A stretch of 64,000 nt of DNA from Candidatus Daviesbacteria bacterium (GTDB lineage Bacteria > Patescibacteriota > Microgenomatia > Daviesbacterales > UBA10151): NCBI GenBank assembly GCA_016432425.1, contig CP066688.1:343398-407397 (forward strand). The letters run 5' to 3'. The translations under genes and the position numbers were made by a program. Below are positions 5,006-5,630 of this stretch, in pieces. Numbering within the stretch: the stretch's first letter is position 1; each line of letters opens with the position of its first letter. Below the pieces are notes generated by a model. The model was given only the letters and a program-made list of their open reading frames with translations. It had not been told where the DNA came from and searched no databases.

Positions 5006-5434
5006 TTAATTCTTTATCTGCCTCCACACAGCAAGATCAGTTGCGTTAAAGGTGAGTTCATGACTTAATACGTTTCGTCCAGCACTAACACCTAAAACAT
5101 AGACATTATCTGGATCATGATCTTGAATCTGCTTAAGTATAATCCTTAGTTCATCCACATCACTACCAAGCTCTAATAAAGTTATTGGCGCCAGACCCAA
5201 AGCAACTAAAAATTGACGTTGCTCGTTCTGTCGAAGTTGATCTATTTGCATTCTCCTGTCAGCACTTAGTTCAACCTCACCTCTATCGATAGCTTCCGCA
5301 ATTAATTCACCGCCTCTATATACCGGTTCATAATTTAAGCCATCTCTCCCTCGGGCAATAATCGAGAAAGAACCATGTTTCCCTTTCATACAGACAGTCC
5401 TAGGATCGATCTCTAATAATATTCTTTCTGTCAT
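5006..5434 (-). CDS. hypothetical protein inserted between groES and groEL
   Basis: 142-aa ORF with no recognisable motif, CG-containing codon usage unlike neighbours; sits inside normally tight groES-groEL spacer. Confidence 0.35.
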
Positions 5435-5630
5435 ATTTTTATCCTTTTTTACCTTGTCATTCCTGCGAATGCAGGAATCTAATTAAAATCCTATCTCAAA
5501 TAGTTTATTGGATCCCGACATTCGTCGGGATGACAGATAACGTCATTCCAATATTGCCATTAAGTCTTCAATCCTTCGATTTCACTCAGGATGACAATTT
5601 GTGTTGGCAATTTTACACAAATTGTCAACT
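5435..5630. repeat. cluster of short inverted repeats/hairpins in groES-groEL spacer
   Basis: attcctgc-gaat-gcaggaat (8-bp stem), tcccgac-attc-gtcggga (7-bp stem), acaatttgtgt…acacaaattgt (11-bp stem); repeated gtcattcc / ggatgaca words. Confidence 0.5.

Follow-up and report, generated by a model that had tools for sequence, protein, structure and literature searches.

A probable occupant of a variable gene slot between groES and groEL in Candidatus Daviesbacteria

The groES-groEL pair is a textbook case of an invariant, normally tight operon. What, then, is to be made of a genome in which 625 bp hold the two genes apart? Such an arrangement is found in a metagenome-assembled genome (MAG) of Candidatus Daviesbacteria, an uncultured bacterium from groundwater. 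The stretch analysed, called the window in the following, covers 64 kb of an 820,589-bp contig. The insert consists of an orphan open reading frame (ORF) of 142 amino acids (aa) and a hairpin-rich leader. It probably represents one filling of a gene slot between groES and groEL that is hypervariable across the lineage, a cassette-exchange site inside the operon which has also been colonised by repeats resembling the Ssn-related motifs (SRM). The parts of the locus are as follows.

5631-5948, minus strand: groES (Cpn10), 105 aa; Pfam PF00166, E 2e-22.
5435-5630, minus strand: hairpin-rich leader, 196 nucleotides (nt), between the groES stop and the orphan ORF.
5006-5434, minus strand: orphan 142-aa ORF (HYW45_01755), the slot occupant, from a four-sequence family with the motifs IDPxTV ... 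VLGxA ... DxxVW.
3378-4997, minus strand: groEL (Cpn60); Pfam PF00118, E 8e-73; start ATGGCCAAGATGCTTAAATTT.

A sequence-only reading had described a 142-aa ORF and a hairpin-rich spacer splitting groES from groEL. Its coordinates and content were right, and Pfam backs the gene identities. By homology (MAKMLKF...), groEL starts at the ATG at 4997, instead of the GTG at 5027 given by a mechanical ORF list. The orphan ORF has an AAGGA Shine-Dalgarno 7 nt upstream, and its stop codon lies 8 nt ahead of the groEL ATG. An identical arrangement (100%) is present in independent assemblies of two other sequencing runs (L001, L002; L-numbered labels, such as L003-L162, denote relatives' groES loci fetched for comparison). 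As the two independent assemblies agree, the order groES/ORF/groEL is not an assembly artefact.

The first question is how unusual such a gap is among relatives. The groES loci of 80 GTDB species representatives, 79 of them with both genes, and 80 JGI metagenome contigs, yielding 67 loci, were compared. Among the GTDB loci (n=79), the gap measures at most 35 nt in 32, 56-141 nt without coding content in 12, and 184-2265 nt in 35. The JGI loci (n=67) divide into 25 with gaps of at most 35 nt and 42 with at least 81 nt. The outgroups Woykebacteria, Levyibacteria and Saccharimonadales have short groES-groEL gaps. The ancestral operon was tight, as it still is in the 32 relatives out of 79, and the proposal that the region is an insertion was borne out. 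The arrangement is not conserved in all relatives; the content of their groESL spacers is hypervariable.

Depending on the collection (79 GTDB, 67 JGI), 44-63% of the loci hold one to four small ORFs in the gap, all on the operon strand. These slot ORFs are 60-234 aa long, and their junctions with groES, with groEL and with neighbouring slot ORFs measure 1-10 nt. Spacers of at least 200 nt (35 slots) are on average 96% stop-free on the operon strand, compared with 17% in shuffles. BLASTP sorts the 100 slot ORFs into 85 clusters, of which 72 have a single member, and most multi-member clusters represent one genome present in both collections. Pfam and PADLOC scans covered the 54 slot ORFs of the GTDB set, the 46 JGI slot ORFs lying outside them; nothing significant was found for the 54, with one marginal match per library (E ~0.005-0.007). 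A tblastn search with the same 54 against the fetched flanks detected no copies elsewhere. In the literature, nothing was found on groES/groEL in Daviesbacteria or on genes between groES and groEL.

The gap on the other side of groEL offers a comparison. Between groEL and the bPH_2 gene, 28 nt are found in the window (3350-3377) and 16-1855 nt in the relatives L003-L079, where ordinary genes of any size lie in it on either strand. For this reason, the small, co-oriented and tightly packed pattern is considered specific to the slot within the operon.

The slot ORFs also share the way they begin. MAE or MTE opens 39 of the 100, against ~2% of flanking genes, and the wider set M(A/T)E or ME opens 52 of the 100, against 14%. 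At the nucleotide level, the consensus of the starts, AAAAATATGGCAGAA, is one base off the groEL start AAAATATGGCAAAA and decays after codon 4; the copy in the window lies at 5423-5434. The bias could stem from duplication of a target site, from the demands of translational re-initiation or from a common ancestry of which it is the last trace.

How quickly does the content change? Slot turnover is fast. The groEL genes of L012, whose slot holds a relative of the orphan ORF, and L052, whose slot is empty, are 91% identical, and other pairs at 84-88% groEL nucleotide identity likewise differ in slot content.

Scars are visible where cassettes meet. In L014, L017 and L059, a chimeric mini-ORF lies between stacked cassettes (ATGGCTAAGATATTAAAATTTGA followed by CGACTTAATGGCAATTTTGGAATAA). 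It consists of the groEL start (MAKILKF) joined at shared K-F-D codons to the groES end (DDLMAILE-stop). L003 carries a more diverged chimeric junction, L067 the groEL-5' fragment alone, and in L012 repeats of the groEL start (ATGGCNAA) border the cassette. Two microhomologies, AAATTTGA (K-F-D) and ATGGCAA, are common to the 3' end of groES and the 5' end of groEL. In the window, too, the groES 3' end (KFDDLMAIIE-stop) bears microhomologies in common with the groEL start. The groES end includes a GGAG Shine-Dalgarno for the next cistron, and therefore copies of this end are retained ahead of downstream genes.

Two further observations concern the groEL start. Three relatives (L005:4723-5427, L031:4713-5405, L087:3723-4427) carry an ORF of 230-234 aa with two CxxC pairs, an NPDF...E.Y.K motif and weak matches to PHROG HNH endonucleases. 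Its first six codons are those of groEL (MAKILK), a GGAGGA Shine-Dalgarno lies in its 3' end, and ATT appears to be the start codon of the groEL that follows. By these features, it is plausibly a free-standing homing endonuclease targeting the groEL-start junction, and it might cause the breaks by which the site becomes a hot spot. The tblastn match to groEL breaks in two near residues 35-90 in L004:4338-5946 and L003:5171-6846, which could reflect an insertion, a frameshift or a divergent N-terminal segment.

The leader of the window records the same kind of events. Read on the operon strand from 5630 to 5435, it comprises module 1, a pseudo-copy of the groES 3' end, an inverted hairpin doublet and a ribosome-binding region. 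The hairpin units are named A, B and C, and their type is that of the NTS and SRM repeats described further below.

5571-5630, minus strand: module 1, 60 nt, a 14-nt palindrome plus the SRM-like hairpin C.
5543-5570, minus strand: pseudo-copy of the groES 3' end, 28 nt, TGAAGACTTAATGGCAATATTGGAATGA, encoding EDLMAILE-stop; direct repeat D1.
5455-5535, both strands: inverted doublet of two NTS/SRM-like hairpins, with the inverted repeats I1, I9 and I10; units ~30 nt apart.
5510-5535, minus strand: unit B, TGTCATCCCGACGAATGTCGGGATCC, with a perfect 8-bp stem (5512-5519/5524-5531) and a 4-nt loop.
5455-5479, plus strand: unit A, TGTCATTCCTGCGAATGCAGGAATC, with a perfect 8-bp stem (5459-5466/5471-5478) and a 4-nt loop.
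5435-5454, minus strand: translation initiation region of the orphan ORF, AAGGTAAAAAAGGATAAAAAT-ATG; ~30 nt around the start are common to otherwise unrelated slot ORFs.

The palindrome of module 1, TTGACAATTTGTGT-N10-ACACAAATTGTCA, spans 5591-5628 (arms 5615-5628/5591-5604), and its loop includes a -10-like TAAAAT. The right arm runs into the weaker hairpin of unit C, GTCATCCTGAG..AAGGAT (GTCATCCTGAGTGAAATCGAAGGAT, 5571-5595). One pair of the hairpin C stem reads C:G, A:T or T:A across the three genomes with module 1, i.e., the window, L024 and L091. The module may be conserved as an operator or promoter or as an RNA element, or its likeness between the genomes may reflect recent transfer.

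The pseudo-copy is the clearest link to the scars of the other loci. As direct repeat D1 (5539-5569 vs 5627-5657), it shows 77% identity, and it can be aligned to the groES-3' portion of the L014, L017 and L059 chimeras. Its agreement with the resident groES end is 22/30, compared with as much as 26/30 for groES ends from other species. Judging from its sequence, the pseudo-copy is a recombination scar. What follows module 1 and this scar differs in each of the three genomes: groEL directly in L024, an unrelated ORF (MAENSGENIF...) in L091, and the hairpin doublet with the 142-aa ORF in the window. One leader before three contents is the clearest evidence of cargo being swapped behind a conserved junction.

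The explanation proposed here starts from what was observed directly, namely the anatomy, the variability, the scars, the membership of the repeats in a family by sequence features, the coding signal of the ORF and its small family. Small promoterless genes would be plugged in on the operon strand with 1-10-nt junctions. Being co-oriented, promoterless and so tightly joined, the cassettes would probably be transcribed from the groES promoter and translated by coupling, and co-transcription of groES, ORF and groEL would be expected. A terminator scan found no terminator-like site between groES and groEL. Recombination would gain, lose, stack and swap cassettes, with the highly conserved groES 3' end and groEL 5' end acting as homology arms. 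The microhomologies named above would also participate, leaving the duplicated groES-3'/groEL-5' scars. The recombination would most likely follow DNA uptake by transformation; natural competence is reported to have been demonstrated in another lineage of the candidate phyla radiation (CPR) (PMC10633639). The window insert would accordingly be layered, with module 1 and the groES-3' pseudo-copy in common with L024 and L091, then the NTS/SRM-like doublet, and finally an ORF with its own ribosome-binding site.

Where do the hairpins come from? Units A and B were aligned with five units from relatives. The TGTCAT 5' flank, the 8-bp stem and the 4-nt loop are invariant, and so is the C directly 3' of the stem in all seven units (alignment column 28). 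In these seven short units, 100% of the stem cells pair, and four of the eight pairs are changed on both sides, i.e., in a compensatory manner. The covariation score was reached by 0/500 shuffles and collapses in slid controls. The relatives' units are dispersed through intergenic regions of other Daviesbacteria, and homologues of the B/A doublet are found at unrelated sites in L027, L025 and L015. The earlier idea that the hairpins are mobile-type repeats was thus upheld, in that they belong to a dispersed, probably mobile, repeat family. The words said to be shared by the hairpins were confirmed in part. Four of the nine GTCATYCY words of the window fall within the 196-nt leader, but the copy at 5542-5549 (GTCATTCC) is the reverse of the pseudo-groES stop region.

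A likely model for these repeats was described in Neisseria. The neisserial NTS repeat, CGTCATTCCCGCGMAVGCGGGAATCYRG, is a superset of dRS3, and NTS repeats include dRS3/NIME (PMC11893778). Together with the wider SRM, they are the single-stranded DNA targets of small single-domain GIY-YIG nucleases, named Ssn (PMC11893778). NTS repeats are concentrated near variable genes and influence how transforming DNA is integrated (PMC11893778). In Neisseria, the 5' flank before the palindrome influences cleavage, and the C after the palindrome is the most critical base for SsnA binding (PMC11893778). The units possess every feature that proved critical in that study, namely the palindrome, the three bases ahead of it and the C that follows. 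The Neisseria NTS consensus is matched at 23/28 positions by unit A and at 19/28 by unit B, the stem differences falling at paired positions, and at 26/28 by a unit of L025 (L025:1893). By these features, hairpins A and B can be said to have the architecture of NTS/SRM repeats, and by analogy Ssn nucleases may act on the hairpins of Daviesbacteria. A gene of the relevant type was seen once beside such hairpins. At L031:7453-7818, ~430-800 bp downstream of groEL, two SRM-like hairpins, the second one inverted, enclose a gene for a 91-aa protein with a single GIY-YIG domain (PF01541, E 1e-11), in the order NTS-ssn-NTS known from Neisseria.

Could the leader instead be a regulatory device? It might represent a cis-regulatory element of the heat-shock operon, which uncouples groES from downstream expression through a palindromic operator and internal promoter or through an RNA structure for processing, stabilisation or thermosensing; the ORF would then be incidental. 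We consider this unlikely. The leader RNA folds at -59.7 kcal/mol (z = -5.4), and 0/200 shuffles fold equally well. Between the window and L024 or L091, identity reaches 88-89% over module 1 with its loop, against a nucleotide identity of groEL to relatives of only ~75%, and for these 60 nt a regulatory role is conceivable. The -10-like hexamer in the palindrome loop forms part of a weak promoter-like TTGAAT-17-TAAAAT at 5638-5610; its score of 9/12 is, however, at chance level. An Rfam search of the leader returned no match at the gathering or E-value threshold, and no leader sequence obviously pairs with the Shine-Dalgarno. Moreover, units A and B come from a family dispersed over unrelated intergenic sites, and most relatives have no such leader at all.

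The sequences ahead of groES also bear on this alternative. A promoter-like TTGACT-17-TATATT precedes groES (5979-5951). The controlling inverted repeat of chaperone expression (CIRCE) had been reported as absent upstream of groES, and a dedicated search for the canonical form (TTAGCACTC-N9-GAGTGCTAA) agreed, with no match within 3 mismatches near groES. Relatives (16/80 by a strict pattern; L014, L020, L030, L031 and others) have an inverted repeat of the CIRCE kind, TTAGCAC-N3-TTGACA-N5-GTGCTAA, lying across the groES -35 box. At 5967-5995, the window has only a degenerate version of it (TTAGGCTACTACTTGACTTTACTAACTAA), a point in favour of the regulatory alternative.

The next question is whether the orphan ORF is a gene, and of what kind. 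The earlier description of its codon usage as CG-rich holds for the dinucleotide only. CpG is raised (observed/expected 0.90 vs 0.55 +/- 0.12 in 31 host genes), but the GC content of 0.40 is host-like (0.41) and that of third codon positions is lower (0.29 vs 0.36). The codon log-likelihood of +0.13 per codon, compared with 0.31 +/- 0.06, is lower than for any of the 31 training genes of the host. Nevertheless, the signal is frame-specific, and because the off-frame values are clearly negative (-0.96/-1.25), the ORF looks coding.

Searches for homologues gave very little. Pfam, NCBIfam, PHROGs and PADLOC returned zero matches, and a word-indexed search of 5.8 billion protein clusters retrieved the ORF itself alone. 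An exhaustive HMMER scan of 1.8 billion representatives returned the ORF itself and two giant Ig-repeat proteins, which were judged spurious summed repeat hits and rejected as homologues. An identity as IS200/IS605 TnpA was dismissed by inspection, as there is no HUH motif and no Pfam match. Three distant homologues were found in the equivalent position in relatives, as the first slot ORFs of L041, L012 and L050 (family alignment A3). The family shares the motifs (L/F)x(I/V)DPxT(V/L), VLG(V/L/A)(S/A)A and DxxVW, with DP, VLG and W invariant in all four members. A profile of the four-member family found no further members, and a sequence search of PDB found no relative. The AlphaFold2 model, a small alpha/beta fold, has a pLDDT of 36 from the single sequence and 55 with the four-sequence alignment A3. 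In Foldseek, this low-confidence model had no match in PDB at E <= 0.001. A metagenome scan detected no closer relative of the locus (top groES identity 69%), and for this reason dN/dS could not be calculated for the ORF. The suggestion of a free-standing endonuclease did not hold for this ORF, which has no nuclease domain or motif in Pfam, NCBIfam, PHROGs, PADLOC, PDB or Foldseek.

Since the distribution is patchy, the sequence an orphan and the composition foreign-looking, our best guess is that the protein is a dispensable accessory, related to conflict or niche, which rides on chaperonin expression, rather than a chaperonin cofactor. The opposite case can be made. The ORF might be a genuine lineage-specific member of the chaperonin operon, i.e., a GroEL/GroES cofactor, a regulator or a dedicated substrate kept for stoichiometric co-expression. 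Its strand, its own Shine-Dalgarno and its stop 8 nt before groEL all suit such a role, as does the fact that all four family members are placed directly after groES. The slots in general also hold small same-strand ORFs only, unlike the groEL-bPH gap. A cofactor, nonetheless, would hardly be expected to form a family of four among 5.8 billion protein clusters, to be present in L012 and absent from L052, or to have its position filled elsewhere by ~85 unrelated families or left empty. The CpG and codon usage are atypical for the host, and no likeness to any known co-chaperone was found. This explanation is considered unlikely as well.

A single selfish unit is very improbable. The whole 625 bp would then be either a gene for a free-standing homing endonuclease or a miniature inverted-repeat transposable element (MITE) that carries the ORF. 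The doublet does look like a MITE or a REPIN, similar doublets lie at unrelated sites in other genomes, and the homing-endonuclease-like ORF of L005, L031 and L087 is fused to the groEL start at the same site. The layout of the insert, however, does not fit. All hairpins are upstream of the ORF and none brackets it downstream, where only 8 nt separate its stop from groEL; the MITE-like element with cargo that had been envisaged from the sequence is therefore not what is found. Hairpin-only slots (L024, L027, L028, L033, L095) and ORF-only slots are both common, so that hairpins and ORFs are independent, and the ORF has no nuclease motif or match. The insert is layered and not one mobile element, and the hairpins are not the ends of an element carrying the ORF.

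Very improbable, too, is a non-functional frame, decaying or newly arisen in junk DNA accumulated between groES and groEL, for which the orphan status, the codon log-likelihood under all host genes and the low AlphaFold2 confidence could be cited, against the frame-specific coding signal, the Shine-Dalgarno and tight junctions, the motifs kept in four distant homologues and the largely open operon strand of the 35 slots.

The hypervariable slot therefore remains the preferred explanation for the insert, and several points weigh against it. The variability of the groEL-bPH gap may mean that part of the pattern is general genome fluidity. Among the slot ORFs, weak pairwise similarities are in modest excess (22 pairs vs 6 in shuffled controls at E <= 0.1). 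Combined with the N-terminal bias, this excess could mean that many seemingly unrelated cassettes belong to a single family, which evolves very fast and has diverged in place. As for the repeats, the three SRM-like units of the 64-kb window (A, B and C, with one doublet) all lie within the groES-groEL spacer, with no SRM-like hairpins outside it and no ssn gene in the window. The published degenerate SRM pattern matches no window unit and, among the relatives, only L027:3363. In addition, read-through of the operon across the hairpins is assumed.

A broader proposal is put forward as a tentative possibility. Daviesbacteria might possess a dedicated, previously undescribed route for trying out genes, in which the groES/groEL junction serves as a universal landing pad for promoterless orphan genes of many lineages. 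Such genes would be inserted, stacked and exchanged at the groES-3'/groEL-5' microhomologies, with site-specific endonucleases maybe triggering and Ssn/NTS-like hairpins maybe gating the process, and would obtain instant, strong and stress-inducible expression. The site would then be an operon-embedded, integrase-free analogue of an integron.

Taken by itself, the locus is modestly interesting, but a lineage-wide hypervariable slot in groESL, together with NTS/Ssn-like repeats in CPR bacteria, is worth follow-up. It is unexpected to find groESL interrupted in roughly half of the species of a CPR lineage by ~85 unrelated orphan families, with clear scars. DNA uptake is thought to be central to the CPR lifestyle. 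If the slot is a true exchange site, it would be a natural experiment on the birth, spread and expression of orphan genes in ultra-small symbiotic bacteria. It would also provide a marker locus for gene flow among uncultured Patescibacteria and a candidate safe-harbour site for genetic tools. The likeness of the hairpins would extend the recently described Ssn/NTS system to CPR bacteria.

Away from the chaperonin locus, the window contains a few further recognisable features.

35879-36038, plus strand: cobalamin riboswitch, Rfam RF00174, 40.6 bits.
50816-51181, plus strand: tmRNA, tag peptide GNNNVRYAYA.
56587-60141: tRNA cluster, including four tRNA-Ser and two tRNA-Arg genes.

It remains to place the insert among known systems. 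The hairpin units resemble NTS/SRM repeats in their GTC(AT) 5' flank, the ATTCC-type palindrome of ~8 bp, the short loop and the C after the palindrome. They adjoin variable genes, and L031 shows the layout of hairpin, ssn and hairpin. They differ in their host, as CPR are a group not mentioned in PMC11893778, and cleavage here is putative. The window has only three units in 64 kb and no ssn gene, and its units are missed by the published degenerate pattern.

The doublet also has traits of the REP/BIME, REPIN and MITE repeats, namely short imperfect palindromes, inverted doublets, an intergenic position, compensatory stem changes and the ability to lie between cistrons. In contrast to those, no RAYT or IS200/IS605-type transposase, no GTAG-type head and no target-site duplication were recognised, and copies are few in the sequence available (one doublet in 64 kb). 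In the search for MITE/REPIN terminal inverted repeats, the arms bracketed 5455-5535 only and not the ORF.

Free-standing homing endonuclease genes of the T4 seg/mob type adjoin conserved genes. The 230-aa ORF of L005, L031 and L087 is comparable, as it lies at the groEL start, duplicates its first 6 codons and could make double-strand breaks. The window ORF, in contrast, has no nuclease features, and most slots have no such gene.

With integrons, the slot has in common the arrays of small, promoterless, co-oriented and mostly orphan genes that are probably served by an upstream promoter. It differs in the absence of an integrase, and its cassettes abut within 1-10 nt or via groEL-5'/groES-3' chimeras. 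An integron proper was rejected as a model, there being no attC-like sites and no imperfect palindrome shared between cassettes.

The best parallel is offered by the minimal mobile elements (MMEs) of Neisseria, which Saunders and Snyder in 2002 and Snyder et al. in 2007 are said to have described. These are reportedly strain-variable cassettes between two conserved genes, spread by transformation and recombination in the flanks. The term itself is used in PMC3082526 and PMC1538595. The slot likewise has conserved flanks with unrelated content, presence or absence between close relatives, and scars consistent with flank recombination. Most of its cassettes also lack mobility genes, as far as the 54 scanned ORFs of the GTDB set are concerned; the exception is the endonuclease-like ORF of L005, L031 and L087. 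Unlike an MME, the slot sits within a two-gene operon, and its cassettes are tiny and strictly co-oriented and would take over the transcription of the operon and its translational coupling. Moreover, the pattern is seen across an entire lineage at candidate phylum level, not among strains of a single species. Transfer would, as the scars suggest, proceed by DNA uptake and homologous recombination in the flanks, and in this slot the cassettes can in addition stack via the microhomology between the groEL 5' end and the groES 3' end.

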